Below, piece by piece: positions 6,353-63,411 of a stretch of DNA of 64,000 bases (positions are counted from its first letter, which is position 1; each line of letters starts with the position of its first letter). A program made the translations under genes and the position numbers. The stretch is from a virus. Lineage: Duplodnaviria; Heunggongvirae; Uroviricota; Caudoviricetes. The notes beneath the pieces are model-generated. The model had not been told where the DNA came from and made no database searches. It saw only the letters and a list, made by a program, of their open reading frames with translations. The DNA lies in the IMG/VR virus record IMGVR_UViG_3300042940_001739. One strand, 5' to 3'.

Positions 6353-6406
6353 AATTTCCTTTTGAATGTTTTTTCTATTTTAAATATAAATATTACATTA
6401 TATAAC

Positions 6407-13027: not shown

Positions 13028-13035
13028 GGAAAGTT

Positions 13036-13887: not shown

Positions 13888-13915
13888 TTACAATATTTAT
13901 ATAAAAATAAGTACT

Positions 13916-14880: not shown

Positions 14881-14890
14881 GGTAAATAAA

Positions 14891-16771: not shown

Positions 16772-16781
16772 GGAATAATAA

Positions 16782-22728: not shown

Positions 22729-22777
22729 CAGCAAAATTAACAATATGTATATTTATATAAAATAAGGTTAAAACACT

Positions 22778-23428
22778 ATGGGATATTTAGATAATACGAG
22801 CGTAACAATTGACGCTATATTAACATTAAAAGGCCGTGAGTTGCTAGCTAAGGGCGGAAATGCTTTTAGTATTACTCAATTTGCAGTAGGAGATGATGAA
22901 GTAGATTATTCATTATGGAATCCAGATCATCCACTTGGAACAAATTATTATGGTACTATTATTGAAAATATGCCAATCACAGAAGCTATTCCAGATGAAA
23001 CTCAAGCTCTTAAATATAAATTAATTACATTACCAAAACAAACAACAAATATTCCGGTTGTAACTGTAGGTAATACATTAATTACATTATCAGCTCCTGG
23101 TGATAGTGCAGTAATTGCTCCGAATACAAGCAACTTCCAAGGAGGAAATGCTAATCTAGGATATACTGCTATTTTATCTGATTCAACAGTTGCAGATATT
23201 CAAGTAACAAGAGCTGTTCAAAATTCAGTTCTTCCAACTACACCTAGATTTATTGGAGATAATGAAGATGCACAAAGTGTTGCAGTAGCAGGGTTTGAAT
23301 TCCGTATTGTTGCTAAGACTCAAATGCTAGAAGATAAAACTGCTTCAGTTACTATCATAGCAAATGAAACGGGTGGTAGTGTGACAATTAATTTAACAGT
23401 TAAAAAAGCAACAACTGCAACTTTATAA
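22778..23428 (+). CDS. Virion structural protein (tail/baseplate module)
   Basis: MGYLDNTSVTIDAILTLKGRELLA, ITQFAVGDDEVDY; late-type motif at 22749. Confidence 0.6.
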   Translation: MGYLDNTSVTIDAILTLKGRELLAKGGNAFSITQFAVGDDEVDYSLWNPDHPLGTNYYGTIIENMPITEAIPDETQALKYKLITLPKQTTNIPVVTVGNTLITLSAPGDSAVIAPNTSNFQGGNANLGYTAILSDSTVADIQVTRAVQNSVLPTTPRFIGDNEDAQSVAVAGFEFRIVAKTQMLEDKTASVTIIANETGGSVTINLTVKKATTATL

Positions 23429-23440
23429 ATAGGTAAAGAT

Positions 23441-24727: not shown

Positions 24728-24743
24728 AATAATACACTGAATT

Positions 24744-24786
24744 AAGCCCTGTTATATTTATATTAAATGTAGCAGGGTTTTTACTG
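24744..24786 (+). terminator. Intrinsic terminator enclosing a late-promoter motif
   Basis: CCCTGTTATATTT/AAATGTAGCAGGG 13-bp stem (with G-U) followed by TTTTTACTG. Confidence 0.65.
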
Positions 24787-24789
24787 ATT

Positions 24790-26361
24790 ATGGCAGAATC
24801 TAAAATAACAAATATTGAACAATCATATCAAGGCATATATCCATCTGTTTTTAAAAAGATAGATGCAGCTGATGTAATGATTAATCCTTTCCAAGTTTTT
24901 AAAACATGGTCTGTAGTTTCTGGTAGCGCTACTAGTAGTATGTTACCATTACAAGCTATTTATTCTGATATAAATTATTTGCCGGCATTAGGATCTGAAT
25001 TAACATTTAATGATGCTAAAAATATTGATGGCAGTTTGCAAACTGTAACATATTGGAGTGTCAATCATTTATATTATAAACATAAAGAATCTCCAGCATT
25101 AACATTCGGGCCGACAGATTTAACTCGTACTAAAAAAGCTTTATATCAATCAGCTTCGATATTATCTTTTCCACAAAATAAAATTGGAGAAGGAATTAAA
25201 TCAACATCATTTACATTTACTGGCTCATTGAATTTAGCAACTGATAAGTATAGCAATTTATATGATGTTGCATTTAATACAAGTTCGATAGTTAGCGATG
25301 TTAAATGGTATGACGGATTCAATGAATATTTTGATTCTTCTAGATTTACTAATACTAATTCAGGTATAACTTTTATACCAGGAGTTCCTACAACAAATGG
25401 AGCACAGCTACCTATAGGATATGCGGCTAAATTTAATGGCTCTGGTTATATTGAATCTTCGTTAAATGGATTATATGATCGAGATAACGATTATGCTATT
25501 TCATTTTTTATATCTGCATCAAATACAAGTATAACAAATCAATTGGTATTAGCAAAAGCTTCTAGTAGCTTAACTCCATCATATCCATTTAAAATTGAAT
25601 TAAGTGGAAGTAATCAATTAGTATTTTCAGCTGCAGGTAGTACTACATTTAAAACTCAAATAACATCGTCTGCTACAATGACGTCATGGAAACATGTTGT
25701 TTGTCAAAAATCTGGAAGTTCATTACAATTATATATCGATGGGACGTTACATGCATCTATAACTAATACATTACTTGTTAATACAATGTCTCCATTTACA
25801 GCTTCAGCTCGTATAGACAATACAAGTAACTTGTTCATTGGCGGTTTTAATAGTCTAAGCTCAAACCTACAAGGAGTTTTAGATGAAGTTAGAATCTTTA
25901 ATAAGTCACTTACAACTAGCAATATAAGTTCTTTAAAAGACCGTAGTGAAGGTGGAACATTTTTACAAACTGGAAATGTTGGTAATGTATTTAGTAAACA
26001 AGGAGTAGTTGTAATTTCATCTCCGGATTATCGTTATCATAATTTAATTAATGCACCATTTACTGCTAGTTATAGGAGTACTGTAACTATAAATGAATTA
26101 AGCATTTTAACAAAATTAGATGCTGGTGATTTTAATATGTCAACTAATTTATCATTAACGAGAGATGATGATTCAACTTATCTTCCATTTGCAACCGGAA
26201 GTGTATTTGCCCCATATATCACAACAATTGGATTATATAATGATTCAGGTGAATTGTTAGCAATTGGCAAATTAGCTCAACCTATTAAAAAACGTGATGA
26301 CGTAGATATGAATTTCTTAATTCGTATTGATTTAGATAAAAATATTTCATTTAAAGGATAA
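24790..26361 (+). CDS. LamG/concanavalin-like domain virion protein
   Basis: WKHVVCQK...LQLYIDG...GVLDEVRIFNKSL LamG signature; C-terminal YITTIGLYND..ELLAIGKLAQP. Confidence 0.8.
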   Translation: MAESKITNIEQSYQGIYPSVFKKIDAADVMINPFQVFKTWSVVSGSATSSMLPLQAIYSDINYLPALGSELTFNDAKNIDGSLQTVTYWSVNHLYYKHKESPALTFGPTDLTRTKKALYQSASILSFPQNKIGEGIKSTSFTFTGSLNLATDKYSNLYDVAFNTSSIVSDVKWYDGFNEYFDSSRFTNTNSGITFIPGVPTTNGAQLPIGYAAKFNGSGYIESSLNGLYDRDNDYAISFFISASNTSITNQLVLAKASSSLTPSYPFKIELSGSNQLVFSAAGSTTFKTQITSSATMTSWKHVVCQKSGSSLQLYIDGTLHASITNTLLVNTMSPFTASARIDNTSNLFIGGFNSLSSNLQGVLDEVRIFNKSLTTSNISSLKDRSEGGTFLQTGNVGNVFSKQGVVVISSPDYRYHNLINAPFTASYRSTVTINELSILTKLDAGDFNMSTNLSLTRDDDSTYLPFATGSVFAPYITTIGLYNDSGELLAIGKLAQPIKKRDDVDMNFLIRIDLDKNISFKG

Positions 26362-26362
26362 A

Positions 26363-26905
26363 ATGATACGATTAAAATCATTATTAGAAATAGTTGATGA
26401 CGAATTAGCTAGATTGCTAGATAAAATAAAAAATAAACAGTTTCGTTTTATTGGTGCTGGCGACAACGGTCGAGTATATGAAATTGATGGAGAAGATCGT
26501 TGTTTTAAGATTACTCAAGAACGAGATGAATTTGAAGTAGCTAAAGTAATTGTAGGACGTTGGTCAGAATTTACAACATTTATCCCGATATATTATGTTA
26601 ATGAAGAAAAACATTTATATATCATGGCAAATGCTGACCCTATTTCTTCTTCAATTAAAATAATGATTGATAGATTTTTACAAGAGTTTACGCAATATGC
26701 ACGTGCAGAAGGCGGCGAAGTTAGTATTTTTGAATTTTTAGATAATGACGGTGCTAGAAATACTGACCCGAAACTTGTTAATTTTTTACGTGCATTACAA
26801 AAAGATGTTGAACGTACAGGAATTGAAGAATTTGATTTAGATTTAGATTTTAATTCAAGCAATGTAATGATGTGGAACGGAAATATAGTCTTAGTTGACT
26901 GGTAA
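26363..26905 (+). CDS. Protein-kinase-like fold enzyme with MIRLKSLLE leader
   Basis: IGAGDNGRVY Gly loop, FKIT (beta3 Lys), DEFE (alphaC Glu), DFNSSNVM catalytic loop, VLVDW (DFG-equivalent). Confidence 0.75.
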   Translation: MIRLKSLLEIVDDELARLLDKIKNKQFRFIGAGDNGRVYEIDGEDRCFKITQERDEFEVAKVIVGRWSEFTTFIPIYYVNEEKHLYIMANADPISSSIKIMIDRFLQEFTQYARAEGGEVSIFEFLDNDGARNTDPKLVNFLRALQKDVERTGIEEFDLDLDFNSSNVMMWNGNIVLVDW

Positions 26906-26920
26906 TGAATATTTATATAT

Positions 26921-28513
26921 ATGAAATCAAATTTATTAGAACAAATAATTAAATCAGCATTGCAAGAGCAATATGTTAAGAGTGGGTTTATAAAGCCGAT
27001 GTCTAACTCTAAAAGAAATCAAGTTGTAGCTAATGGTGGTATTACTGGGTTTGAACTTCATATGAAGTTTAAAGGAGATCATGGCGATTTATCTGTAATG
27101 ATATCTAATATAAAAAGTCGTATTTTAGTTGATGACAGAACTGGCCCTGGTAGTAGATTTGATGTATTAGATTCTGCTGTTGATCAACCTAGATACATGT
27201 ATGTTATCGGAGATGATGTTTTAAAATCAAAACGCCGCGCATTATTAAATATATGGGTTATTGCTTATAGTCCACTTGCAGAATTAGCTAAAAAAATTGA
27301 TAGTTTAAATAAAAATGATCGATATCAAATACAATTGAAATCTGTAGTTGAATTTCTTGTAGGCGGAATTCCAACATATACATGGTCAGATGCAGCTAAA
27401 TGGATCGCGGTATTAAAAATGCAATCTACATCATTGAAATTTGAATTATTTGATCCTCAACTTAAAAGAAAAGTTGAATTTCCTAACTTAGGTACAATTA
27501 ATAAACTAGAAACAGAACTTCCAGATGTTGCAACTAAAATAGTAAAAATTGATGATACAAATCGTGGAGATTATGATGGTATTGCAGATTTTACTGGAGA
27601 ACTTGAAATTTCATATGATACTAAGGGTAATGAACAAGCAACATATATAAATGGTAGTATATCTGTATATCGTACAGGCGATGGAAAACATGGTACGTAT
27701 ACTGGTACTTTTAAAGATGGAATGCCCTTTAAAGGAACAGCGATTTGGGATGATGGTGAAAAATGGGAAGGCGAATTGCAATCAACGAAAAGTGTAGATC
27801 CTAACACAGGTGATCAAGATTTCCATTTTACTTCAACCGGAGCTAAAATAACAAACTCAACATCAACTAATTCAGAAACATATAGGCTAGAATATCCATA
27901 TACAATTCCAGCAGGTTCAGTTGCAGGGAGTATTGTATATACTATGTCAGACACAGATAAATGGGTTTATGTAAAAGTTAATGATGAGTGGTATACAACA
28001 AATAAAATTGATTTTGAACGACAACAGTTAGATGGAGGCCCTAGGCCAAATGAAAAATTGATTCCTAAAACAGAAACAGATGTGTATGCAAAATTAGATG
28101 CATTAGTAGTAAAAACGCCAGGTGCCCCAACTACAAATAATTCTTCTAATACAGACCAACCAACTACGAATAATTCGGATCAATCGGTTGATACTAAAAA
28201 TACTAAAGATAATAATCCACTCGTACAACCACTCGTACAACGAGAAAAACCAAAAACTGATAAAAATAAAACAACGGTGGAATTCTTAAATAAAGAGAAA
28301 TCTAAAAACAGAAATGGTATTGCATTTATCAAAGTATCTGAAACGCCAATTTATAATTATAAAAATAAACAATGGGTAAAAGCAGGAACATATAATCCAA
28401 AAGATGGTCAATATATTGCATACTTAGGAAATTCGTCAGATTATAAATACATACGAGTTAAATTTGTAAAAGATAAAAAAGTATATTGGATACCAACATC
28501 ATCAGTAAAATAA
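26921..28513 (+). CDS. Multi-domain protein: leader, MORN-like repeats, T/N linker, C-terminal SH3b-like domain
   Basis: GTYTGTFKDGMPFKGTAIWDDGEKWEGEL MORN-like; C-terminal YIRVKF...VYWIPTSSV SH3b-like; late-type motif at 26909. Confidence 0.55.
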   Translation: MKSNLLEQIIKSALQEQYVKSGFIKPMSNSKRNQVVANGGITGFELHMKFKGDHGDLSVMISNIKSRILVDDRTGPGSRFDVLDSAVDQPRYMYVIGDDVLKSKRRALLNIWVIAYSPLAELAKKIDSLNKNDRYQIQLKSVVEFLVGGIPTYTWSDAAKWIAVLKMQSTSLKFELFDPQLKRKVEFPNLGTINKLETELPDVATKIVKIDDTNRGDYDGIADFTGELEISYDTKGNEQATYINGSISVYRTGDGKHGTYTGTFKDGMPFKGTAIWDDGEKWEGELQSTKSVDPNTGDQDFHFTSTGAKITNSTSTNSETYRLEYPYTIPAGSVAGSIVYTMSDTDKWVYVKVNDEWYTTNKIDFERQQLDGGPRPNEKLIPKTETDVYAKLDALVVKTPGAPTTNNSSNTDQPTTNNSDQSVDTKNTKDNNPLVQPLVQREKPKTDKNKTTVEFLNKEKSKNRNGIAFIKVSETPIYNYKNKQWVKAGTYNPKDGQYIAYLGNSSDYKYIRVKFVKDKKVYWIPTSSVK

Positions 28514-29201: not shown

Positions 29202-30146
29202 ATGAAGAATCTTAAGTTATTACAATTATTAGAATCAGTATTAGGTAAAGGTAAACCTACTTCAGGTGATAATATCGCATTCTTCTCTCCATTTGTTTCG
29301 CATTACAAACCTAAATTAGAAATTAATATCAATACCAATCATGCTGGTGAAAATACTTGGCATTGTTGGATATCAGATAAAAAAGGTCGTAGTATTGCTA
29401 CTTTATTTAAGCAATTAAACTTATCTAAAGAAAAGTTCGAACAACTTAATCGAATCATTGAAACAACACGATATCGTTCAAAAGATTCTGGCACTGAAAA
29501 ACAAGAAATAATTCAATTGCCAGAAGAATATCGTCCATTATGGATTAAAAAATTAACTCCTGATTACAGAAATGCAATTCATTATTTAACTAATCGAGGA
29601 ATAACTATTTTTGATATTATCAAGTATAGAATCGGTTATTGTGAATCAGGAGAATATGCTGGCAAGATTATAATTCCAAGTTATAATGCAGCGGGTCAAT
29701 TAAATTATTTTGTTAGTAGAGCTTTTTATAAAGCAGATACACAAAAACATAAAAATCCGAAAATTTCAAAAGACATCATTGGGTTTGAAATGTTTATTAA
29801 TTGGGCAGAACCAATTATTTTATGTGAAGGTTCATTTGATGCAATTTCAATTAAAAGAAATGCAATTCCATTATTTGGAAAAATTATTCAGCCTGCACTA
29901 CAGAAAAAAATCATTGAAGAACGCGTTAGAAACATTTATATTTGTTTAGATGCAGATGCGTTAAAAAATGCAATTCAAATTGCAGAGCGTTTTATGGGTG
30001 AAGGTTTAAATGTATATTTCGTTGAATTAAAAAACGAAGATGCATCGGAATTAGGATTTAAAAAAATTACAGAAATATTAGCAGATACCGACGTTTTAAC
30101 ATTCGAAGGGCTAATGCAATTAAAAATGGGAATGCTATGGGCATAA
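29202..30146 (+). CDS. DNA primase (DnaG-like, TOPRIM)
   Basis: YLTNRGI, YRIGYC, IIIPSY, YFVSR, ILCEGSFDAI, ICLDADA, DASE motifs. Confidence 0.9.
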   Translation: MKNLKLLQLLESVLGKGKPTSGDNIAFFSPFVSHYKPKLEININTNHAGENTWHCWISDKKGRSIATLFKQLNLSKEKFEQLNRIIETTRYRSKDSGTEKQEIIQLPEEYRPLWIKKLTPDYRNAIHYLTNRGITIFDIIKYRIGYCESGEYAGKIIIPSYNAAGQLNYFVSRAFYKADTQKHKNPKISKDIIGFEMFINWAEPIILCEGSFDAISIKRNAIPLFGKIIQPALQKKIIEERVRNIYICLDADALKNAIQIAERFMGEGLNVYFVELKNEDASELGFKKITEILADTDVLTFEGLMQLKMGMLWA

Positions 30147-33100
30147 AAAAGATTGACATCGGAATTGATAAAATTGATAAAATTTATCATGTTTCAGATA
30201 TACATATTCGAACATTGAAACGACATACGGAATATCGTGAAGTTTTTAAAAACATGTTTGACTATATTGAATCAAATCGAACTGCAAATAGTATTGCGGT
30301 AGTTACTGGGGATATTGTTCATAGCAAATTAGATATGTCTCCGGAGCTAGTTCAAATGCTTGTTGACTTTTTTAATGGATTCAAATTACCTACAATTGTT
30401 ATTCTAGGTAATCACGACATGAACTTGAACAATATGCATCGAATAGATGCTGTTAGTCCTATTTTAGATGTAATTCAAAACAATAATATCATCTTTATCA
30501 AAGAAAATGGTTTGTTTGAATGTGGAGGAGCTGTATGGAATCATATGGCGGTAGATGTTGCACCAACTGAATATATTCTAGCAAAAGACTTTGATGCATC
30601 TTATAAAATAGCAATGCACCATGGAGCTGTTAATACTGCAAAGACTGATATTGGATATCAAATTTCAAATGAGCATGTAACTACAGAATTATTCAAAGGA
30701 CATGACATTACATTATTAGGAGATATTCATAAGCCAGCACAATTTTTAGATGATGAAAAAACAATTGCATATCCAGGGTCATTAATTCAACAAAATCACG
30801 GGGAAGCATTAGATCATGGTATTTTGGTTTGGGATATCGAATCACGTCGTGCTGATTTTGTTGAAATACAAAATGATTACGGATATGTTACATTAGAAGT
30901 GGATGACACTAAAATAATTAAGTCACCACATCGAATGCCTAACAAACCACGTGTTAGAATTAAATTCAACGAAACAAGTGCAGCAGATATGAAAAAGCTG
31001 ATTGCAACGATTCGTAAAAAATACAATGTTCAAGACATTACGATTCAACGTAGCACTACCGGACCTGACACATCAGTTTCATCGTCATTTACAATTGGTA
31101 ATGTTCGTGACGTAGAATATCAAAATACATTGATTACTGATTATATTTCAATTAATCATCCACAAGCAACTCCAGAAGAGACTGATGCTATTAGACATAT
31201 TAATAGAACAATAAATTCTAAATTGCCAGCAGTTGAATCAGTTCGTCACATGACATGGCACCCAGTTCAATTTGAATTTGAAAACATGTTTTCATATGGC
31301 GAGAACAATTTAATTAATTTTGAAAATTTACAAGATGTATGTGGTTTATTTGCTGCAAATACAAGTGGTAAATCTTCATTGCTAGATGCAATTACTTATA
31401 CAATATTTGATAAATGTAGTAAAACTGGTAAAGCTCATGAAGTTTTAAACAACAAGAAAGATCGATTTAAAGGTAAATTTACTTTTGAAATGAACGGCGT
31501 GAATTATACAATTGAACGTACTGGTATCAAACAAAAGAATGGTCATGTTAAAGTATTAGTAGACTTTTATACTGAAACTGAAAATTTGAATGGGGAAGAA
31601 CGAAGTGATACTAATAAATCAATTCGTCGTTACTTAGGCACATATGATGATTTTATTTTAACTGCATTTTCACTTCAAGCAGATAATAATAACTTTATTG
31701 AAAAGTCTCAACGTGAACGAAAAGACTTATTATCACAATTTTTAGATATTACAGTATTTGAACAACTTTATCAATTAGCATCAGATGAAATTAAAGAAAC
31801 TGCTGGTAAATTAAAATCATACAAGAAAACGGATTTTGATGTTATTATCAATGATGCTGATACTATTATTTCAAACAACCAACAAGATATAACTTCATTA
31901 GAAACTGAAGAAGATGAGTTGCAAGAAAAACGCAATGATTATCAAAATGAAATTGTAGACTTAATTCAAACAAAACAACCAACTACATATTCAGGACCGA
32001 ATATTGATCAATTAACTAAAATTGAAACTGAGTTAACTAAAAAAATATCACAACTACAAAGTGATATAGAAACGTCAGAAACAAATTTAGAGTCATTAAC
32101 AAATGAATATTTAATCATTAAAAGAGATAAGCGCCGATACAATGAAACAGACTTATCAGATAAACTTCAACAATTAGAAAAACTCGAAAAGGAATTAGCA
32201 CAGATAGATTCGAGTATTAAAAAACAACAAGGAATTATCAATGCAAAACAAGAAAAAATTAATCACCTTTCCGACCATGAATATGATCCGAACTGCAAAT
32301 ACTGTACATCTAACGTTTTTGTGCAAAATGCAATTGAAGCACAGAACACGATTGGTGCGGATAGAGACATATTGACTGAATTGTCTGAACAACAATTACA
32401 ATTAAAATCAACGATACAAACATATTCGACAGTTAGAATAGATAATGATGCATTAGCAACATTAAAACAAAAACATGAAACAAAACGTATAACAATTGAA
32501 AAACAAGAATTGCAAATTCAAATTATTGAGAATGAATTGCAAACTCGTGAATCAGAATTAGAAACATGTTTAGAACGTCAAGAATCATTTAAAGCTAATG
32601 CTAGTGCAATTACACATAATGAAGTTATTGATAAAAAGATTGATACATTAAAAACATCAATTGAATCAGCAACAAGTCAAATAAAAACTATTACAGATAC
32701 AATTCGTAGCAAACACGGCCGTATTGAAGTTGCAAAAACAACTAAAAAATCTGCAATTGAATCATTAGACAAATACAAACAACTTGAAACTGAATACAAA
32801 GCATTTGAATATTATTTAGATTCAGTTAAGCGTGATGGCGTACCATATGAATTGATTGCTAAGGCAATGCCTAAGATAGAATCTGAAATTAACAATGTTT
32901 TAAACCAAGTTGTTGATTTTAATATGGTATTGCAAAGTGATGGAAAAAACATTAATGGGTATATCATTTATGATGATGAAAACTATTGGCCATTAGAATT
33001 AACATCAGGTATGGAACGATTTATTAGTTCATTAGCAATACGTATTGCATTAATCAATGTATCAGCATTACCACGCCCTAATTTCATTGCAATAGATGAA

Positions 33101-33277
33101 GGATGGGGAAGTTTAGATGCAGAACATATTTCAGCAGTTGTTAATCTTTTTGATTATTTCCGTACGAAGTTTGATTTTTCAATTATCATTTCACACGTTG
33201 ACACAATGCGTGATATGGTAGATAATTTAATAGAAGTAAATAAAATAAATAAATTTAGCCAGATTCAACACGTTTAA
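30137..33277 (+). CDS. Fused Mre11/SbcD nuclease - Rad50/SbcC ATPase (gp47-gp46-like)
   Basis: SDIHIR, GDIVH, GNHD, HHG, GDIHK; then AANTSGKSS Walker A, coiled coil with CKYC hook, TSGMERF signature, IAIDEGWGSLD Walker B/D-loop, IISH. Confidence 0.92.
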   Translation: MGIKKIDIGIDKIDKIYHVSDIHIRTLKRHTEYREVFKNMFDYIESNRTANSIAVVTGDIVHSKLDMSPELVQMLVDFFNGFKLPTIVILGNHDMNLNNMHRIDAVSPILDVIQNNNIIFIKENGLFECGGAVWNHMAVDVAPTEYILAKDFDASYKIAMHHGAVNTAKTDIGYQISNEHVTTELFKGHDITLLGDIHKPAQFLDDEKTIAYPGSLIQQNHGEALDHGILVWDIESRRADFVEIQNDYGYVTLEVDDTKIIKSPHRMPNKPRVRIKFNETSAADMKKLIATIRKKYNVQDITIQRSTTGPDTSVSSSFTIGNVRDVEYQNTLITDYISINHPQATPEETDAIRHINRTINSKLPAVESVRHMTWHPVQFEFENMFSYGENNLINFENLQDVCGLFAANTSGKSSLLDAITYTIFDKCSKTGKAHEVLNNKKDRFKGKFTFEMNGVNYTIERTGIKQKNGHVKVLVDFYTETENLNGEERSDTNKSIRRYLGTYDDFILTAFSLQADNNNFIEKSQRERKDLLSQFLDITVFEQLYQLASDEIKETAGKLKSYKKTDFDVIINDADTIISNNQQDITSLETEEDELQEKRNDYQNEIVDLIQTKQPTTYSGPNIDQLTKIETELTKKISQLQSDIETSETNLESLTNEYLIIKRDKRRYNETDLSDKLQQLEKLEKELAQIDSSIKKQQGIINAKQEKINHLSDHEYDPNCKYCTSNVFVQNAIEAQNTIGADRDILTELSEQQLQLKSTIQTYSTVRIDNDALATLKQKHETKRITIEKQELQIQIIENELQTRESELETCLERQESFKANASAITHNEVIDKKIDTLKTSIESATSQIKTITDTIRSKHGRIEVAKTTKKSAIESLDKYKQLETEYKAFEYYLDSVKRDGVPYELIAKAMPKIESEINNVLNQVVDFNMVLQSDGKNINGYIIYDDENYWPLELTSGMERFISSLAIRIALINVSALPRPNFIAIDEGWGSLDAEHISAVVNLFDYFRTKFDFSIIISHVDTMRDMVDNLIEVNKINKFSQIQHV

Positions 33278-45851: not shown

Positions 45852-46478
45852 ATGTCAAAATTATTAGTAGAATATATGCAATTTAAACCAATTGGTTCAT
45901 TAAATGAAACAAGCGGTGCTGCATATGGCGTTCCGGGTGGTTTTGTAGTGCAAGGTGTTTTACAACGTGCTGGTGCTAAGAATCAAAACGGAAGAATTTA
46001 TCCAAAAAATATATTGATGCGTGAATGTGTACGTTATCAAAAAGAATATATTGATCAACATAGAGCATTAGGCGAGTTAGATCATCCAGAATCATCAGTT
46101 GTTAACTTGAACAACGTTTCTCATAACATTTTAAAAATATGGTGGGAAGGTGATGATTTAAAAGGAGCAGTTCAAATTTTAGAAACTCCGTCAGGTAAAA
46201 TTCTTAAAGAACTTTTTAAAGCTGGAATTACATTAGGTATTTCATCCCGCGGTTTAGGATCTGTTAAAGAACTTAGAAACGAAGGTGCTGTTGAAGTTCA
46301 AGAAGACTTTGAATTAATTTGTTGGGACTTCGTATCTAATCCTTCTACACATGGGGCTTTTATGCGTCCTACGCACATGCACGAATCAGTTGGTAAAATG
46401 AATACCACAAATAAATATAATAAAGTAAACAGCCTTATAACTTCGATTTTATGCGAAGATGGTAAATGTAGAATATAA
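45852..46478 (+). CDS. Prohead core protease (T4 gp21-like)
   Basis: NQNGRIYP, ALGELDHP, VSH, TPSGKI, GISSRGLGS, DFVSNPS motifs. Confidence 0.97.
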   Translation: MSKLLVEYMQFKPIGSLNETSGAAYGVPGGFVVQGVLQRAGAKNQNGRIYPKNILMRECVRYQKEYIDQHRALGELDHPESSVVNLNNVSHNILKIWWEGDDLKGAVQILETPSGKILKELFKAGITLGISSRGLGSVKELRNEGAVEVQEDFELICWDFVSNPSTHGAFMRPTHMHESVGKMNTTNKYNKVNSLITSILCEDGKCRI

Positions 46479-46857: not shown

Positions 46858-46898
46858 TTTGGATAATTAACTAATATTTTTTATATTAAAGGTATAAA

Positions 46899-47348
46899 AT
46901 GAATAAACTAAAAAAATTATATAAAGAATTTTTTGGATTAACTGAACAAGCAGTAAAAGGAAGTATATCAGTTAAAGATCCTGCAAAGGCTGAGGAATTA
47001 GCAAAAAAAGGATTAGATGTGAAATTAGTTGATGAAGCTCAACTTATTAATCATATGACTGATTACCGAGGAGGCGTAGAATATGTTATATATGACGCAG
47101 CACAAGCACAAGTAGTAGCCAATGACATTCAACAATGGGCAGAGAAAAAAGGATTTACTATTATCAGCAAAAAGATTTCAAAATCAGGAACTGTAGGATA
47201 TTTTTATTTTAGATTAGGAGAAGACCCAGCACGAGAATCACAAAAAATACAAGGCTATGTTTCACAATTACCAAGTGTAAAACATTTTAGATTCAATGTA
47301 CGTTCACAACGTCCTACAAAGAAACAAAGACCATCAATAGAAATGTAA
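46899..47348 (+). CDS. Hypothetical protein with predicted ferredoxin-like (ACT/bS6-like) C-domain
   Basis: beta-alpha-beta-beta-alpha-beta pattern from VEYVIYD to VKHFRFNV; TTGG-N19-TATATT promoter at 46859. Confidence 0.55.
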   Translation: MNKLKKLYKEFFGLTEQAVKGSISVKDPAKAEELAKKGLDVKLVDEAQLINHMTDYRGGVEYVIYDAAQAQVVANDIQQWAEKKGFTIISKKISKSGTVGYFYFRLGEDPARESQKIQGYVSQLPSVKHFRFNVRSQRPTKKQRPSIEM

Positions 47349-47367
47349 TAAATTTTAAACAAGTTAT

Positions 47368-47613
47368 ATGAGTAAAAAACAAAAACAACATCAACAAATT
47401 GTGCCAGGAAATGCATTAGCAGTTAAAGTTATCGGATCAACGAGAGAAGATTTAGCACATGCACTTAAGGCGTGGAAACGAAAAGTAAAATCAGCAAACA
47501 TCTTAGAAGAAGTTAAAGACAGACGTGAATTTATCAAACCAGGAGTTAAACGTCGCAAACAACTACAAGATGCGGCATTCATGCAAATGGTAAGAGATTT
47601 GCATTCTAAATAA
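47368..47613 (+). CDS. rpsU: Ribosomal protein bS21
   Basis: AVKV...DLAHALKAWKRKVKSANILEEVKDRREFIKPGVKRRKQ matches the bS21 pattern; N-terminal extension. Confidence 0.9.
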   Translation: MSKKQKQHQQIVPGNALAVKVIGSTREDLAHALKAWKRKVKSANILEEVKDRREFIKPGVKRRKQLQDAAFMQMVRDLHSK

Positions 47614-47634
47614 AAATTAATTTAATTAATTATT

Positions 47635-47670
47635 AAAGCCCCTTCCTAATAAGTTGGGGCTTTTTTACTG
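47635..47670 (+). terminator. Intrinsic terminator after rpsU (identical to inverted copy at 3740-3775)
   Basis: AAAGCCCC-TTCCTAATAAGTT-GGGGC-TTTTTTACTG. Confidence 0.85.
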
Positions 47671-47697
47671 GTTTTTCAAACTTGTCTATATTTATTT

Positions 47698-47805
47698 TAG
47701 AATACGCTATTCCAACCTATTATATAGCGTCTAGAAAAAATTAAAATATTCTATTAAGATTCCGAATAATCTTATTTCCAAAAAACAAATTTAAGGAGTA
47801 AACTT
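47698..47805 (+). promoter_or_regulatory. Structured 5' leader of scaffold/capsid operon with SD
   Basis: Stems ACGCTAT/ATAGCGT, TAAGATT/AATCTTA, TAGAATA/TATTCTA; AAGGAG 7 nt before ATG. Confidence 0.5.
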
Positions 47806-48810
47806 ATGGCAAAATCAGATTTGCTAAAAGAAGCAATCGCAGATGCTCGTGCTGTTAAAGAAACTGCATTAGCAAACGCAAAGATCGCTCTTCAAGAAGC
47901 ATTTGCCCCAAGAATCCAACGTATGATCTCTGATCAAATCGAGAATGAACTTGATAGTGAAGAAGAAGTACCAGCTGAAGAACCAGCAATGGATGATATG
48001 GGTGCAGCAGGCGCTGAAGACGAATTAGGGACAGATGTTGGAGATTTATCAATCGACGTTGATGGTGACGGAGAATTTGATGAGTTTGACATTATGTCTA
48101 ATGAACCAATGGGTAACGAAGAAGGCGAAGATATGCCGGCAGAAGAAATGCCAGCAGAAGATATGCCAGCTGAAAACCCTGAGGAAGAGTACAACGAAGG
48201 ATATGAAGAATCTGATGAAGATCTTAATCTTGAAGCAATCATTCGCGAGTTAGAAGGTGACTTAGAAGAACCAGAAGAGCCAATGATGGAAGAAGATGAA
48301 TTTGAATTAGAAGATCCGATGATGGAAGGTGATTACACTGAAGAAGCTGATGACTTAAACATCGACGAAATCATTGAATCAATCCTACGTGAAGAAGAAG
48401 AAGGTGATGTATCTGTACAAGACGAAACTGGTGAAGTTGAAGCAATGAAAGAAGAGTTAGAAGAAGCGTATAATACAGTACGTCAACTTAAATCTATCAT
48501 CAACGAAGTTAACTTGTTAAATGCAAAACTTCTTTACACAAACAAATTGTTCCGCAATTTTGAGTTGACAGAAGGTCAAAAAATGAAAGTAATTGAAAAC
48601 TTTGACAGAGCTGGAAACACAAGAGAAGTAAAATTAGTATTTAGTACTTTAGCTGAATCATTCAACCGTCCAAGTAAAAAACGTGTAGTTAAAGAATCTT
48701 ATGCATCGAAAGCAACAGCAACGACAGCACCTAAGAAAGAAACAACACAAGTTTTATCTGAAGGATTTGAATTAGCTAACAGATGGAAAAAATTAGCAGG
48801 ATTGCTATAA
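47806..48810 (+). CDS. Prohead core/scaffold protein (gp22-like)
   Basis: Highly acidic; LLKEAIADA N-terminus; VNLLNAKLLY; multiple LxE sites; directly upstream of MCP. Confidence 0.85.
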   Translation: MAKSDLLKEAIADARAVKETALANAKIALQEAFAPRIQRMISDQIENELDSEEEVPAEEPAMDDMGAAGAEDELGTDVGDLSIDVDGDGEFDEFDIMSNEPMGNEEGEDMPAEEMPAEDMPAENPEEEYNEGYEESDEDLNLEAIIRELEGDLEEPEEPMMEEDEFELEDPMMEGDYTEEADDLNIDEIIESILREEEEGDVSVQDETGEVEAMKEELEEAYNTVRQLKSIINEVNLLNAKLLYTNKLFRNFELTEGQKMKVIENFDRAGNTREVKLVFSTLAESFNRPSKKRVVKESYASKATATTAPKKETTQVLSEGFELANRWKKLAGLL

Positions 48811-48835
48811 AATTAAAAAAAAAGGAAAACGAAAA

Positions 48836-50467
48836 ATGAGTATTTCAAACTTATTACAAACAAATGACTTCGTTCAAAGAAACAATGCTAAATTAGCAGT
48901 TTCTAAATGGGAGAAGACAGGATTATTAGAAGGTCTTAGATCTGAGACTGAAAAAGCAGGTATGGCGCAATTGCTTGAAAACCAAGCACGTCAATTAGTA
49001 AAAGAAGCAACTTCAACAGGTACAACAGCTGGATCTGAAGAGTGGGCTGGTGTGGCTTTGCCATTGGTACGTCGTATTTTTGCTGAATTTGCAGCTAAAG
49101 AATTCGTATCAGTTCAACCAATGAACTTACCATCAGGACTTATTTTCTATTTAGATTTTAAATATGGTACAGCTCAAGCTGGATTTGATGCAGATAACAA
49201 CGACAGAACAGGTGATCCATTTAGTTCTCCAAATGCTGATGATTCATTATTTGGTGTTACAACTACATCAGGTGATCCATCAGGAGGTCTTTATGGTGCG
49301 GGTCGTTTCGGATACACTTTAAATGATGTATCTGCAACAGGTGTTGCTGCAACTACAGCTTCTGCTGCTTCAGCAGGATCAGGGTCAGTTAATTTTGATT
49401 CAGATTATACAGCAAACTTAGCAGGATATACAGTTGTTTATGTATCAACAGGTTCATTAACTTCTCCAGACTTAAACGCAGTTCGTTCATTCGTATTAAC
49501 TTCAGGTTCAAATGTAACTGCAGCAATGAATGTTCCAGCATTTACAAAATTCAACACAGCAACTGGTAATATTGAGTTCTTCGTATCTAAATCAGCAGGT
49601 ATGAGCGGAACAACATTGTATTCAGTAGCATATAGCAAACAACCAACTGATATCACTCGTGGTGACTTTGAAGATAAAACAGCTTACGGTAACGGATATA
49701 ATGCTGACATCGACATTCCAGAAATCAACTTGGAAATGCAATCAGAGCCAATCGTTGCTAAAACACGTAAATTGAAAGCAGTTTGGACTCCAGAGTTTGC
49801 TCAAGATTTGAACGCTTACCATTCAATTGATGCTGAAGCAGAATTAACTTCTATGTTGTCTGAATACGTTTCTATGGAAATCGATTTAGAGATCTTAGAT
49901 ATGTTGATCGCAGCAGCTCCAACAACTGAGTATTGGTCAGCTAAAAACAACAACGTATGGAACGGAACTGGTTTTACTCAAACTGATTCAACTGGTGCTG
50001 GATTCTACAACACTCAAGGTGGTTGGTTCCAAACTTTAGGTACTAAACTTCAAAAAGTATCTAACAAAATTCACCAAAAAACATTACGTGGTGGTGCTAA
50101 CTTCTTAGTAACAAGTCCAGCAGTAGCTACAATTCTTGAGTCTATCCCAGGATTTGCTGCTGACACAGACGGTACTAAAATGGAATTTGCAGCTGGTGTT
50201 CAAAAAATTGGTGCGATTAATAATCGTTACACAGTTTACAAAAACCCATACATGAAAGAAAATGTAATATTAATGGGCTTCAGAGGTGCGCAGTTCTTAG
50301 AGACAGGTGCAGTATTTAGTCCTTATATTCCGTTGATCATGACTCCATTAGTGTACGATCCAGTTAACTTCACTCCACGTAAAGGTGTTATGACACGTTA
50401 CGCGAAAAAAGTAGTTCGTCCAGAATTCTACGGTAAAGTTTACGTACACGGGTTAAACACTCTTTAA
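48836..50467 (+). CDS. Major capsid protein (T4 gp23-like)
   Basis: LENQ, LPLVRR, VSVQPMNLPSGLIF, AKTRKLKAVWTPEFAQDL, YIPL, TPRKGVMTRY. Confidence 0.97.
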   Translation: MSISNLLQTNDFVQRNNAKLAVSKWEKTGLLEGLRSETEKAGMAQLLENQARQLVKEATSTGTTAGSEEWAGVALPLVRRIFAEFAAKEFVSVQPMNLPSGLIFYLDFKYGTAQAGFDADNNDRTGDPFSSPNADDSLFGVTTTSGDPSGGLYGAGRFGYTLNDVSATGVAATTASAASAGSGSVNFDSDYTANLAGYTVVYVSTGSLTSPDLNAVRSFVLTSGSNVTAAMNVPAFTKFNTATGNIEFFVSKSAGMSGTTLYSVAYSKQPTDITRGDFEDKTAYGNGYNADIDIPEINLEMQSEPIVAKTRKLKAVWTPEFAQDLNAYHSIDAEAELTSMLSEYVSMEIDLEILDMLIAAAPTTEYWSAKNNNVWNGTGFTQTDSTGAGFYNTQGGWFQTLGTKLQKVSNKIHQKTLRGGANFLVTSPAVATILESIPGFAADTDGTKMEFAAGVQKIGAINNRYTVYKNPYMKENVILMGFRGAQFLETGAVFSPYIPLIMTPLVYDPVNFTPRKGVMTRYAKKVVRPEFYGKVYVHGLNTL

Positions 50468-58769: not shown

Positions 58770-60458
58770 ATGCCCTCATGGAAAAAAGTCATAGTATCAG
58801 GTTCTGATGCCTCTCTGAATTCAATAACTACCCCTGCAGGTACAATCAACAGTATTACAGCATCATATGCAACAAATGCTTTAACTGCATCATATACTCC
58901 CGCAATTGCAGGTACAGACAATTATATACCTAAATTCAATGGTTCAAGTGCACTAGAAAATAGTGTAATGTATGATGATGGTACTAATATTGGTATTAGT
59001 ACTACTAGTCCTACAGAAAAACTTACAGTATCTGGTAATATTTCAGGTAGTGCTAAATTAACCATAGGAACATCCCACACCAACTCAGGAACATTATCCT
59101 CGATTGCCGGTGGTACTGGAAATATAGCATCAGGAAACTGTTCATTTATCGGTGGTGGTCAACAAAATACTGCATCTGGTGATACTTCAACAGTTAGTGG
59201 TGGATATCGCAATACAGCATCTGGTTATTATTCAACAGTAGGTGGTGGTGCTCAAAACACAGCATCTTGTAATAATTCAACAGTAGGTGGTGGTTTTTTT
59301 AACACAGCATCTAATTATAATTCAACAGTAGGTGGTGGTGTTTTTAACACAGCATCTGGTAATCGTTCAACAGTAGGTGGTGGATATAATAATATAGCAT
59401 CTGGTTATTATTCAACAGTAGGTGGTGGTGGAGGTAACACAGCATCTTGTACTTATTCAACAGTAGGTGGTGGATCTGGCAACACAGCATCTGGTTATTG
59501 TTCAACAGTTAGTGGCGGATATTGCAATACAGCATCTGGTTATTGGTCAACAGTTAGTGGTGGATATTGCAATACAGCATCTAGTACTAATTCAACAGTA
59601 GGTGGTGGTAATACTAACACAGCATCTAGTTTTAATTCAACAGTAAGCGGAGGTACATACAACACAGCATCTTGTAATAATTCAACAGTAGGTGGTGGTT
59701 TTTTTAACACAGCATCTGGTTATAGTTCAACAATAAGCGGAGGTGCAAACAACACAGCATCTAGTTATAATTCAACAGTAGGTGGTGGTGGAGGTAACAC
59801 AGCATCTAACTCATATGCAACAATAAGTGGTGGTCGTTCAAACACAGCATCTGAGTATAGTTCAACAGTAGGTGGTGGATATAATAATATAGCATCTGGT
59901 TATTATTCAACAGTAGGTGGTGGAGTTTTTAACACAGCATCTGGTACTCGTTCAACAGTAGGTGGTGGAAGAACTAATACAGCATCTAGTATTAATTCAA
60001 CAGTTAGTGGTGGATATTGCAATACAGCATCTGGTTATTTATCAACAATAAGTGGTGGTCGTTCAAACATAGCATCTGGTTATAATTCAACAGTTAGTGG
60101 TGGATATTGCAATACAGCATCTAGTTATTGGTCAACAGTTAGTGGTGGTCATTCAAACACAGCTTCTAATTATTTTTCAACAGTTAGTGGTGGAAAATCT
60201 AACACAGCATCTGCTAATTATTCAACAGTTAGTGGTGGTTATACCAATACTGCTTCAGGAACATATTCAGGTATTTTAGGTGGGTGCGGAAATACTGCAT
60301 CATGTGCCTGTTCGTTTATAGTGGGTACACAGATTACAACAGATAGAGTTTGCACAACATTTGTAAATAATCTTTCTATTAAAAATGTCCCAACATCTGC
60401 AGCTGGTTTGCCTGCTGGTTCTGTTTGGTCTAATGGTGGAGTTTTAAATATTGTCTAA
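58770..60458 (+). CDS. Tail fibre/adhesin with YadA-head-like 15-aa repeats
   Basis: MPSWKKVIVSGS N-terminus; 27 x S(T)V(G/S)GGxxNTASxxx; C-terminal PTSAAGLPAGSVW. Confidence 0.85.
   Translation: MPSWKKVIVSGSDASLNSITTPAGTINSITASYATNALTASYTPAIAGTDNYIPKFNGSSALENSVMYDDGTNIGISTTSPTEKLTVSGNISGSAKLTIGTSHTNSGTLSSIAGGTGNIASGNCSFIGGGQQNTASGDTSTVSGGYRNTASGYYSTVGGGAQNTASCNNSTVGGGFFNTASNYNSTVGGGVFNTASGNRSTVGGGYNNIASGYYSTVGGGGGNTASCTYSTVGGGSGNTASGYCSTVSGGYCNTASGYWSTVSGGYCNTASSTNSTVGGGNTNTASSFNSTVSGGTYNTASCNNSTVGGGFFNTASGYSSTISGGANNTASSYNSTVGGGGGNTASNSYATISGGRSNTASEYSSTVGGGYNNIASGYYSTVGGGVFNTASGTRSTVGGGRTNTASSINSTVSGGYCNTASGYLSTISGGRSNIASGYNSTVSGGYCNTASSYWSTVSGGHSNTASNYFSTVSGGKSNTASANYSTVSGGYTNTASGTYSGILGGCGNTASCACSFIVGTQITTDRVCTTFVNNLSIKNVPTSAAGLPAGSVWSNGGVLNIV
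59097..60311 (+). repeat. Coding tandem repeat, 27 x 45 bp
   Basis: Constant blocks TCAACAGT(A/T)(G/A)GTGG and AA(C/T)ACAGCATCT alternating with 6-nt and 9-nt variable blocks. Confidence 0.9.
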
Positions 60459-62585: not shown

Positions 62586-63056
62586 ATGATTTATTGGTTT
62601 ACCGGACAGCCTGGAGCAGGTAAAACTGTTTTAGCAACTGCTCTAAAACAAGAAATGGACAATACTTTCCACATTGATGGAGATGATTTACGTGCCATTT
62701 TTGACAACAAAGATTATAGTGAAACTGGTAGAAGAAAAAATATTGAGCTAGCGCAACAACTAGCTCATTTTCTTTACAATAAAGGAAACAACGTAGTTGT
62801 ATCCCTTGTTTCACCATACAAAGATCAACGTGAAGAATTTAAAACAAAACTTGGAGATTCAATCAAAGAGTTTTATGTTCACACTACTGAAATACGAGGA
62901 CGAGAAAATTTCCATGTTGAAAACTATCAACAACCAACAGAAAATTATCTTGATATAGATACTACAAATATTTCCATTGAAGAATGTTTAAACAAAATTA
63001 AAAGTTATGCAAAATTGGACCAAGAAAGTACACGTACAATCATCCCTACAATCTAA
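62586..63056 (+). CDS. cysC: Adenylyl-sulfate (APS) kinase
   Basis: WFTGQPGAGKT P-loop, IDGDDLR, GRRKNI, VSLVSPY. Confidence 0.88.
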   Translation: MIYWFTGQPGAGKTVLATALKQEMDNTFHIDGDDLRAIFDNKDYSETGRRKNIELAQQLAHFLYNKGNNVVVSLVSPYKDQREEFKTKLGDSIKEFYVHTTEIRGRENFHVENYQQPTENYLDIDTTNISIEECLNKIKSYAKLDQESTRTIIPTI

Positions 63057-63411
63057 ACCAAACCAATACTCTTTATTTATTGGTCGTTGGCAACCATTAC
63101 ATGATGGGCATAAAGCTCTATTCCAACAAGCTTTAGATGAAGGAAAAAATGTTTGGATTGCAATCCGAGATGTTGAAACAACTGAATCAAACCCATTTGA
63201 TGCTCAAGAAGTACTTAAAAATATTGAAACCGAATACAAAGAATTATGCGATCAAGACAGAGTTAAAGTTAGCATCATCCCTGACATATGTTCAGTGGAG
63301 TTTGGTAGAGGAGTTGGCTATGATATCATTGAACATATACCTCCCACACAGATAGCTGAAATATCAGCAACAAAAGTAAGAGAACAAATGCGTAAAGAAG
63401 GTAAACTATGA
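63007..63411 (+). CDS. HIGH-family nucleotidyltransferase (cytidyltransferase/NadM-like; possible minimal ATP sulfurylase)
   Basis: FIGRWQPLHDGH, GRGVGY, ISATKVR. Confidence 0.8.
   Translation: MQNWTKKVHVQSSLQSKPNQYSLFIGRWQPLHDGHKALFQQALDEGKNVWIAIRDVETTESNPFDAQEVLKNIETEYKELCDQDRVKVSIIPDICSVEFGRGVGYDIIEHIPPTQIAEISATKVREQMRKEGKL

Follow-up and report, generated by a model that had tools for sequence, protein, structure and literature searches.

Ribosomes of Flavobacterium-type bacteria normally ignore Shine-Dalgarno (SD) sites, which raises the question of why an uncultured T4-like phage that most likely infects such bacteria places these sites in front of many of its structural genes, and whether this is connected with the ribosomal protein bS21 that it encodes. 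To address this question, we analyzed a window of 64,000 nucleotides (IMG/VR record IMGVR_UViG_3300042940_001739), in which the bS21 gene rpsU lies within the head module, together with related phage loci. The original prediction had proposed that an SD-less phage rpsU escapes the autoregulation of the host gene, and that its product replaces host bS21 and unmasks the anti-SD so that capsid mRNAs are favoured. The observation underlying this proposal was confirmed and is stronger than could be seen from the window alone, whereas its interpretation is only partly supported.

The rpsU locus and the SD sites of the window

The rpsU gene (47368-47613, plus strand) encodes a protein of 81 amino acids that matches the Pfam family Ribosomal_S21 (PF01165) over residues 26-69 with 46.2 bits against a cut-off of 27 (E 3.6e-12). 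An AlphaFold model predicts the three-helix architecture of bS21, with helices at residues 26-42, 45-52 and 58-80, and low confidence for the N-terminal 25 residues. The 25 nucleotides upstream of the gene (atgtaataaattttaaacaagttat) contain no SD and have a duplex energy of 0.0 kcal/mol with the 16S tail. Cellular Flavobacterium-type rpsU, in contrast, has a strong SD with a duplex energy of -21 kcal/mol, and the phage gene therefore lies outside the host autoregulation design, in which a strong extended SD (below -13 kcal/mol) is expected. rpsU is SD-less in all relatives of the clade.

rpsU is the second gene of a small unit. It is preceded by ORF149 (46899-47348, plus strand), which would be co-transcribed with it and encodes an unknown protein with an N-terminal tag MNKLKKLYKEFFGLTE. 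No Pfam or PHROG match was obtained for ORF149, but in the AlphaFold model its residues 56-135 form a C-terminal ferredoxin-like domain of beta-alpha-beta-beta-alpha-beta fold with pLDDT above 90, for which the fold hits are generic (NikR, ACT and bS6). Ahead of both genes lies a bipartite promoter-like motif, TTTGGATA-N-TTATATTA (46858-46888, plus strand), which is not the late box and whose function as a promoter is inferred. The early/middle-type promoter proposed at this place was only partly confirmed, as the window alone gives 8 regular-expression matches to TTTGG-N19-TTATATT against about 4 expected, but the motif sits at the equivalent place in 30 of 57 distinct relatives and is replaced by the late box TATTTATA in about 7. 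The unit would be closed by an intrinsic-terminator-like hairpin read from the sequence (47636-47666, plus strand; AAGCCCC/GGGGCTT with a 13-nt loop) followed by a T run.

The neighbouring genes belong to the head module. Upstream lies a gp21-like prohead protease gene (45852-46478, plus strand; PHROG 207, E 2.1e-54) led by GGGGAG. Downstream, a 192-nt spacer carries the late-box variant TATTTATT (47689-47696, plus strand), followed by an AAGGAG SD (47793-47798, plus strand; duplex energy -7.7 kcal/mol) located 7 nt before the start of a gene encoding an acidic scaffold-like protein of 334 amino acids (47806-48810, plus strand). This protein is 52% identical over 116 residues to the product of the gene that precedes the major capsid protein (MCP) gene in Flavobacterium phage immuto. 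An AAGGA SD (48822-48826, plus strand) lies 9 nt before the MCP gene (48836-50467, plus strand), which belongs to the T4 gp23 family (Pfam Gp23, E 1.4e-76). The box TATTTAT[AT] lies upstream of 12 of the 23 window genes that have an upstream gap of at least 40 nt.

All gene starts predicted to be SD-led carry AAGGA or AAGGAG 4-9 nt before ATG (9400, 11575, 13036, 16782, 38795, 47806, 48836, 51566, 52807, 53328, 57150 and 58770, and 4403 and 6352 on the minus strand), and the same is true of 12002, 14446, 26363, 45362 and 50525. All starts of early and replication genes predicted to be SD-free (421, 3529, 8346, 9790, 28530, 29202, 60514 and 62586) are SD-free, as are portal, terminase and the gene at 36255. 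In total, AAGGA ends fall 4-9 nt from the start in 19 of 73 genes, against 1 in the -40 to -21 zone, and the duplex energy is at most -5 kcal/mol in 30% of real upstream regions against 8.5% of shuffled ones. A difference in pairing energy between late and early genes had been set beforehand as a condition of the hypothesis. Within the window, 16 of 41 genes in structural blocks are SD-led, against 1 of 27 of the other plus-strand genes (Mann-Whitney p 1.3e-4 on pairing energy), although a promoter-based early versus late test was weak within single genomes, with p between 0.07 and 0.38.

The possibility that the AAGGA words are not ribosome-binding sites, but part of late transcription start regions, RNA-processing or stability signals, or targets of a phage RNA or protein, linked to bS21 only by a coincidence of descent, was considered. 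Several sites lie only 3-8 nt after the late box TATTTATA, so they could fall at or before the transcript start, and the phage does use a leader-tag and antisense-hairpin pair for its early genes. However, the distance to the start codon is fixed at 4-9 nt, with a peak at 5-9 nt across 394 distinct contexts, while the distance to the late box varies from 3 to 23 nt. Many sites lie inside the preceding coding sequence at operon-internal genes with no promoter nearby, indicating that they are not promoter parts. G is enriched to 34% right after AAGGA, which extends the complementarity to the 16S tail, (C)UCCUU, and coding regions avoid the strongest 16S-complementary words more than they avoid permuted words of the same composition. 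We consider this explanation very unlikely.

Distribution of bS21 and SD sites among related phages

We next sought to learn whether SD use and bS21 occur together, and examined 160 related head-module loci. In the 66 loci that encode bS21, SD pentamers precede 395 of 1143 genes (34.6%), against 1.0% in a control zone, whereas in the 43 loci that lack bS21, a group that includes immuto, they precede 29 of 660 genes (4.4%), equal to the 4.2% of the control zone. The MCP leader has AAGGA in 44 of 49 distinct bS21+ sequences and in 0 of 40 distinct bS21- sequences, the latter being G-free. A homolog of ORF149 is present in 62 of the 66 bS21+ loci and in 0 of the 43 bS21- loci. The whole genomes of immuto and of a second member of the bS21- clade (G090) contain no bS21 anywhere.

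Coding regions gave a concordant picture. Compared with synonymous-codon shuffles, internal strong SD-like pentamers have an observed/expected ratio of 0.64-0.72 in three bS21+ genomes and 1.06-1.26 in three bS21- genomes, and permuted control words of the same composition give 0.84-0.90. The depletion is stronger in late-class genes (0.63) than in early-class genes (0.86).

In the rooted MCP tree, bS21 plus SD is the ancestral state, and the immuto clade lost both in one step. The association thus maps to a single branch, and as one evolutionary event that could reflect a host shift it is suggestive but not proof. In such a host-lineage explanation, the bS21-encoding clade would infect bacteria whose ribosomes read SDs anyway, such as cyanobacteria or another non-Bacteroidia group, SD use and avoidance of internal SDs would be ordinary adaptation, and only the immuto clade would have moved to SD-blind Bacteroidia and lost both features. 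The only cultured phage with rpsU at this position, Mel-JY01 (PP395634), is recorded on Microcystis and uses SDs on most genes, including most head and tail genes and rpsU itself. In addition, the early and rpsU promoters can also be read as sigma-70-like (TTGACA or TTGGAT, N17, TATnnT), and T9SS-domain searches in five relatives found nothing.

On the other hand, the phage bS21 profile scores best on Bacteroidia-type cellular bS21, with 52 bits on Flavobacterium-type bS21 against 22-37 bits on other phyla, and in a tree the phage protein joins that group. The two best PDB matches are the bS21 proteins of F. johnsoniae and P. gingivalis, and the sister clade holds a Flavobacterium phage. All bS21 proteins of the window clade and its basal grade carry the Bacteroidia-specific aromatic residue in a short, weakly basic C-terminal helix, whereas Mel-JY01 bS21 has a basic tail without it, as seen in other phyla. 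Only about 16% of genes genome-wide carry an SD, and the core is AAGGA, whereas in Mel-JY01 it is GGAG or GAGG. A host in the class Bacteroidia is therefore inferred as most likely, and we regard the host-lineage explanation as doubtful. Mel-JY01 and immuto (vB_FspM_immuto, MW353175) belong to the same T4-like lineage, with MCPs 56-58% identical and syntenic head and tail modules, but immuto has neither bS21 nor SDs.

The phage bS21 protein and its possible role

The original prediction had attributed unmasking of the anti-SD to the sequence AAFMQ in place of AAYIQ in F. johnsoniae. The alignment is correct, as F71 and M72 align with Tyr54 and Ile55 of F. johnsoniae bS21 (PDB 7JIL chain z), but the Tyr-to-Phe change as the cause is not supported. 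Phe, Tyr and one His alternate at this position within the clade with the same SD use, and Chen et al. 2022 (PMC9723584) already reported aromatic substitutions and inferred that stacking is retained. The residues that hold the 16S tail in F. johnsoniae are conservatively kept as Phe or Tyr and Met or Ile, which argues for sequestration like that of the host.

The distinguishing feature is instead a 16-residue N-terminal extension, MSKKQKQHQQIVPGNA, in which residues M1, K3, K6, H8, I11, P13 and G14 are invariant in 16 diverse relatives. Bacteroidia-type bS21 has about 63-66 amino acids, starts with ML(I/V)I and lacks such an extension, and the extension pattern was not found as a bS21 N-terminus in 185,579 species genomes. 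Phages with host-like Bacteroidia bS21 and no N-terminal extension, 32 distinct types, show no SD use (3.5% against 2.9% in the control).

In F. johnsoniae, bS21 status decides whether ribosomes read SDs, and rpsU is autoregulated (Jha 2020, PMC7797042; McNutt 2023, PMC9976891; 2026 follow-ups PMC13000453 and PMC13000457). Loss of bS21 or the Y54A change makes its ribosomes read SDs (PMC9976891, PMC13000457). The phage protein shares the family and the C-terminal helix and, as in the host, there are SD-led and SD-less mRNAs. In the host, however, a single gene, rpsU, has a very strong SD and is read by ribosomes lacking bS21, whereas in the phage rpsU is SD-less and dozens of structural genes have weak SDs.

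We tentatively propose, with somewhat less than even confidence, that in the lineage of this myophage of about 160 kb the weak to moderate SD sites on about a third of the head, tail and baseplate genes are functional and are read by ribosomes whose anti-SD is accessible, and that this ability depends on the phage bS21, with its conserved and presumably disordered extension and a C-terminal helix adapted to Bacteroidia ribosomes. In this view, ordinary SD-blind host ribosomes would translate the SD-less rpsU from its own non-late promoter, its product would enter 30S subunits in place of, or in addition to, host bS21, and these ribosomes could pair with AAGGA(G), favouring capsid, scaffold, fibre and baseplate mRNAs late in infection. 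Our analysis demonstrates the sites, their position and conservation, their restriction to bS21-encoding relatives and the selection against internal SD-like words, whereas the incorporation of the phage protein, the release or holding of the 16S tail, increased initiation through pairing, and a role of the extension rather than Phe71 are inferred. Several points speak against the proposal. In F. johnsoniae only very strong SDs (below -13 kcal/mol) gained from bS21 loss and a weak-SD mRNA did worse (PMC9976891), while the phage SDs are -5 to -9 kcal/mol, and only about a third of late genes carry an SD, portal and terminase not being among them.

Alternatively, SD reading may be real without phage bS21 being the unlocking part. 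Infection could produce bS21-free ribosomes, for example through host shut-off or a phage factor, which would read the SD-led late genes, while phage bS21 would behave like host bS21 and keep the remaining ribosomes replete for the SD-less majority of phage genes, or set the ratio of the two ribosome pools. The conserved C-terminal contact residues and the strict linkage of ORF149 to rpsU in the main clade are consistent with this. About 70-85% of phage genes are SD-less and bS21-free ribosomes translate SD-less mRNAs about 2-fold worse (PMC9976891), so a supplement would pay, and McNutt et al. speculate about phage factors that drive bS21 exchange (PMC9976891). However, the 32 lineages with host-like bS21 show that a generic supplement does not bring SDs with it, the extension, the most conserved part of the protein, is left unexplained, and the failure of weak SDs to profit from bS21 loss in F. 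johnsoniae also weighs against it. We consider this alternative unlikely.

Implications for phage-encoded ribosomal proteins

Substitution of phage bS21 into host ribosomes has been proposed before (PMC9723584, PMC7797042). In the bS21-encoding freshwater Bacteroidetes phages (Chen et al. 2022, PMC9723584), and for viral bS21 in general (Mizuno 2019, cited in PMC9976891; Watson 2020, PMC7550191), bS21 likewise lies in the head module next to the protease, portal, terminase and MCP genes, a Bacteroidetes host is predicted, an aromatic residue sits at position 54, and the published idea is that phage bS21 enters host ribosomes and favours late phage mRNAs. In those phages, however, the gene is on the opposite strand and genomes reach 331 kb, whereas here it is on the same strand as the head genes in the window and in all 66 bS21+ loci, as the second gene of a unit with its own inferred promoter and terminator, and complete relatives are about 160 kb. 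Those papers report no SD-led late genes, and Watson et al. found no relation between phage S21 and ribosome-binding-site consensus. The co-distribution with SDs, the co-loss and the internal-SD depletion are new here. Phage T4 also has a short A/T late box close to gene starts (TATAAATA, against TATTTATA here), AAGGA or GAGG ribosome-binding sites, with AAGGA-type SDs on structural genes, and the gene order gp20, gp21, gp22, gp23, but its host reads SDs, so T4 needs no ribosomal protein of its own.

In its furthest-reaching form, which is possible but less likely than not, a virus-encoded ribosomal protein would change the start-site chemistry of the ribosomes of its host. The N-terminally extended bS21 would convert SD-blind Bacteroidia ribosomes into SD-reading ones, creating a private translation channel for a late regulon of capsid, scaffold, fibre and baseplate genes that was kept for the whole history of the clade and lost together with the gene in the sister clade.

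bS21 is the ribosomal protein most often carried by phages, yet its function in phages is still a guess. Our findings make this guess amenable to a concrete and cheap test, since one clade couples a distinctive bS21 variant to a defined set of SD-led genes, with natural controls in a sister clade without either feature and in other lineages with host-like bS21 and no SDs, and since SD-plus and SD-minus GFP reporters, bS21 depletion strains, in vitro translation and cryo-EM already exist for F. johnsoniae. If it holds, it would be a clear case of a virus building specialised ribosomes, and it would also explain why Bacteroidia keep a perfect anti-SD that they hide.

Shine-Dalgarno sites and the genes that carry them

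The sequence analyzed is part of the genome of a T4-like myophage with 32.7% G+C, encoding a gp23-family major capsid protein, a gp20-type portal, a large terminase, a gp21-type prohead protease and gp25/gp6-type baseplate proteins, together with a primase, an SbcCD-like nuclease and PhoH, although most structural genes stayed unnamed after PHROG and Pfam annotation and a tRNA scan found none. The nearest cultured relative by DNA is Flavobacterium phage vB_FspM_immuto, with 78% identity over part of the capsid gene, and 28 proteins are syntenic with those of immuto at 28-68% identity. Complete uncultured relatives are about 160 kb. A single ORF of 1046 amino acids (30137-33277) matches both the SbcD-like (residues 13-343) and the SbcC-like (residues 276-1044) nuclease subunits and appears to be a fusion of the two genes that are separate in T4 (gp47 and gp46). 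Two overlapping ORFs (62586-63056 and 63007-63411) match the first part (profile positions 3-100) and the last part (132-229) of the same PHROG kinase family, phrog_10255, which could reflect a split, frameshifted or programmed-frameshift gene.

The gene rpsU (47368-47613) encodes a protein of 81 amino acids that passes the Pfam bS21 threshold, and its best solved relatives are the bS21 proteins of F. johnsoniae (7JIL chain z) and P. gingivalis. Phe71 aligns with Tyr54 and Met72 with Ile55 of the F. johnsoniae protein, so the comparison of AAFMQ with AAYIQ made in the original prediction is right. The gene itself has no SD. To learn how widely SD sites are used, 73 genes were called and the pairing of each upstream region with the 16S tail was computed. 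Nineteen genes carry AAGGA or AAGGAG ending 4-9 nt before the start, whereas only one such word lies in the -40 to -21 zone, and 30% of the real upstream regions reach -5 kcal/mol, against 8.5% of shuffled ones. Every SD site that had been listed in the original prediction is present, and so are several more; the observation on which it rested is confirmed and extended by our analysis.

We considered whether AAGGA might be part of the late promoter, and this was rejected, as the distance from the word to the start codon is fixed while its distance to the late box TATTTATA varies from 3 to 23 nt, and many sites lie inside the preceding gene, at tightly packed operon-internal starts. The sites therefore behave as ribosome-binding sites and not as promoter parts. 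A search for an SD-mimic small RNA found no intergenic AAAGGAGGTG-type word in the window, in relative G001 or in genome G002. At the genes starting at 26921, 56853 and 8262 (minus strand), the late box TATTTATA or TATTTATT ends only 3-4 nt before the start codon, so that their late transcripts may be leaderless or nearly so, which would be a third kind of start signal beside the SD-led and A-rich leaders.

To compare late with early genes, the blocks holding recognized structural genes (11575-28513 and 36255-60458) were taken as late. Sixteen of the 41 genes in these blocks are SD-led, against 1 of 27 other plus-strand genes (Fisher p = 0.0012; Mann-Whitney p on pairing energy = 1.3e-4). The block limits were set after the annotation had been seen, and the test is therefore not fully blind. 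A cruder test based on the nearest upstream promoter motif goes in the same direction but is weak within single genomes (p of 0.07-0.38 per genome), and the host-type promoter pattern in the window alone gave 8 matches against about 4 expected. No recognized replication gene has an SD, and portal and terminase also lack one, as had been stated originally. Among the SD-led genes is that of a 562-aa protein (58770-60458) with UspA1-type adhesin repeats and a beta-roll, which is probably a tail fibre.

Co-distribution of bS21 and SD sites among related phages

Two scans of IMG/VR, using the capsid proteins of the window and of immuto, yielded 160 head-module loci. A bS21 profile finds the gene in 66 of them, always on the same strand and about 1.4 kb upstream of the capsid gene. 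In these loci, 395 of 1143 genes (34.6%) have an SD pentamer at 3-11 nt, against 1.0% in a control zone, whereas in the 43 loci that have enough upstream DNA but no bS21 the figure is 29 of 660 (4.4%), against 4.2% in the control zone. The capsid-gene leader carries AAGGA in 44 of 49 distinct bS21+ sequences and in 0 of 40 bS21- sequences, in which the leader is an A/C-rich, G-free stretch. Neither immuto nor a complete bS21- genome, G090, has bS21 anywhere. Genome-wide, two near-complete bS21+ relatives have about 16% SD-led genes, clustered in the structural regions, while immuto has about 2%. In the immuto genome, the words TATATTTAGGTATCAATAATTAAAAC are strongly enriched upstream of genes, a long conserved leader or promoter element that the clade of the window does not share.

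On the capsid tree, one branch with 99% support separates all bS21+ rows from all bS21- rows. When the tree is rooted with Rhodothermus phage RM378, which sits on a long branch, the order of divergence is LR756508, Mel-JY01, the loci L185/L186, the locus L170, and then the main bS21+ clade as sister to the bS21- clade. So bS21 plus SD is the older state, and the immuto clade lost both together. This is a single evolutionary event, which fits a functional dependency but cannot prove one.

If the ribosomes that translate these mRNAs expose the anti-SD, strong SD-like words inside coding regions should be avoided, as they are in SD-using bacteria. In the window and in two complete bS21+ relatives, GGAGG, AGGAG and GAGGT occur 1.4-1.9 times per kb, which is 0.64-0.72 of the number expected from synonymous-codon shuffles, whereas permuted control words give 0.84-0.90. 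In three bS21- genomes, the density is 4.2-6.9 per kb and the ratio of observed to expected is 1.06-1.26. Within the bS21+ genomes, the depletion is stronger in late-class genes (0.63) than in early-class genes (0.86). Codon usage in the bS21+ genomes also avoids purine-rich G words in general, not only the exact SD words (about 3 per kb against 6-9 per kb in bS21- relatives). The depletion does not say why the anti-SD is exposed, but it rules out the idea that the sites are relics or transcription signals.

The phage bS21, its transcription unit and the inferred host

The argument that the phage changes how ribosomes select start sites only has force if the host is SD-blind, and a host of the class Bacteroidia is considered likely, though it remains inferred. 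The bS21 profile of the clade scores 52 bits on Flavobacterium-type cellular bS21, 26-42 bits on other classes of the phylum and 22-37 bits on other phyla, and in the bS21 tree the phage clade joins the Tyr54-type Bacteroidia group. All members, including the basal grade, keep an aromatic residue at that position, a residue that the literature calls unique to Bacteroidia (PMC7797042, PMC9976891), and the sister clade holds a Flavobacterium phage. Against this, Microcystis phage Mel-JY01 (PP395634), a cultured phage recorded on Microcystis, has rpsU (6185-6412) at the same place, between the protease and the capsid gene. A tblastn search of the phage collection with the bS21 sequence had given no match, although Mel-JY01 holds a divergent homologue; that search was too insensitive for a query of 81 amino acids. 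However, the Mel-JY01 protein has a basic C-terminal tail without the aromatic residue, its rpsU is SD-led, and SDs with a GGAG or GAGG core precede most head and tail genes, so that it looks like the version of the same module for an SD-reading host and offers a useful contrast to the Bacteroidia-type version. The promoters are ambiguous between the Bacteroidota -33/-7 type and the sigma-70 type. The phage GroEL is 59-65% identical to proteins of many phyla and was uninformative, and a search for the T9SS C-terminal domain found nothing in five relatives, although the controls barely responded.

The original prediction had pointed to the change from Tyr to Phe as the switch, and this reading was rejected, since Phe, Tyr and one His alternate within the clade with the same SD use; Chen et al. 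already described such aromatic variants and inferred that stacking is retained (PMC9723584). The presence of bS21 alone was also rejected as the correlate of SD use. Thirty-two distinct phage lineages carry a host-like Bacteroidia-type bS21 that starts ML(I/V)I... with no extension, and they show SD pentamers at 3.5% of genes, against 2.9% in the control zone. The distinguishing feature is a 16-residue N-terminal extension, M[SN]KKQKQH..I.PG, which is the most conserved part of the protein, with M1, K3, K6, H8, I11, P13 and G14 invariant in 16 diverse members. The extension is predicted to be disordered, and it was not found as a bS21 N-terminus in 185,579 species genomes. Similar N-extended bS21 proteins occur in phages of SD-using hosts, and the protein of this clade looks like an old phage lineage of bS21 whose C-terminal helix was fitted to Bacteroidia ribosomes.

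A bipartite, promoter-like motif (TTTGG-N19-TTATATT, 46858-46888) precedes ORF149 (46899-47348), rpsU follows 19 nt later, and a hairpin with a T run (47636-47666) closes the unit. The motif sits at the same place in 30 of 57 distinct relatives, and a late box replaces it in about 7. ORF149 begins MNKLKKLYKEFFGLTE, resembling a putative head-targeting and prohead-protease tag, and it occurs only, and almost always, next to rpsU, with homologues in 62 of 66 bS21+ loci and in 0 of 43 bS21- loci. Its C-terminal domain is confidently predicted to adopt a generic ferredoxin-like fold; bS6 is among many equal fold hits but is no better than NikR or ACT, so no claim is made from this similarity.

A tentative model and the apparent leader codes of the phage

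Our preferred, though tentative, reading is that SD-blind ribosomes make the phage bS21 and that this protein then gives ribosomes access to AAGGA(G) leaders late in infection. What the analysis shows is the sites, their placement and conservation, their restriction to relatives encoding bS21 and the depletion of SD-like words inside genes, whereas the entry of the phage protein into ribosomes, the release of the anti-SD, a gain in initiation from the pairing and a role for the N-terminal extension are inferred. Published work in F. johnsoniae demonstrates that the switch exists in principle, since removing bS21 or mutating Tyr54 to Ala raises SD-dependent translation 3- to 5-fold (PMC9976891) and the 16S tail leaves its pocket (PMC13000457). 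Several points argue against the specific form of the idea: the tail-contacting residues are conserved, the F. johnsoniae effect needs very strong SDs while the phage sites are weak, and only a third of late genes carry a site. A rival model, in which the phage protein acts like that of the host while bS21-free ribosomes read the SDs, stays alive, but it does not explain the conserved extension or the SD-free lineages with host-like bS21. The interpretation offered in the original prediction is thus supported in part.

The general idea that phage bS21 enters Bacteroidetes ribosomes and favours late phage mRNAs has been published (PMC9723584; see also PMC7797042 and PMC9976891). Watson et al. 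compared the ribosome-binding-site consensus between S21 phages and hosts, Bacteroidetes included, and saw no relation (PMC7550191), and our literature search found no paper reporting SD-led late genes tied to a phage bS21, which is what the present case adds to the published idea, now in a form testable with existing tools.

A separate signal marks early genes in relative G001. There, eleven near-identical early promoters of the form TTGAC(A/T)CG-N-CTTATCTTTA lie at about 7.8-16.2 kb, most of them just upstream of small early genes whose leaders carry AAGAGAGA 1-4 nt before the start. A terminator-like hairpin nearby, at about 7070-7140, shows the loop UUUCUCUCUCUUAUU, the antisense of that tag. 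The phage thus seems to use different leader codes for early and late genes.
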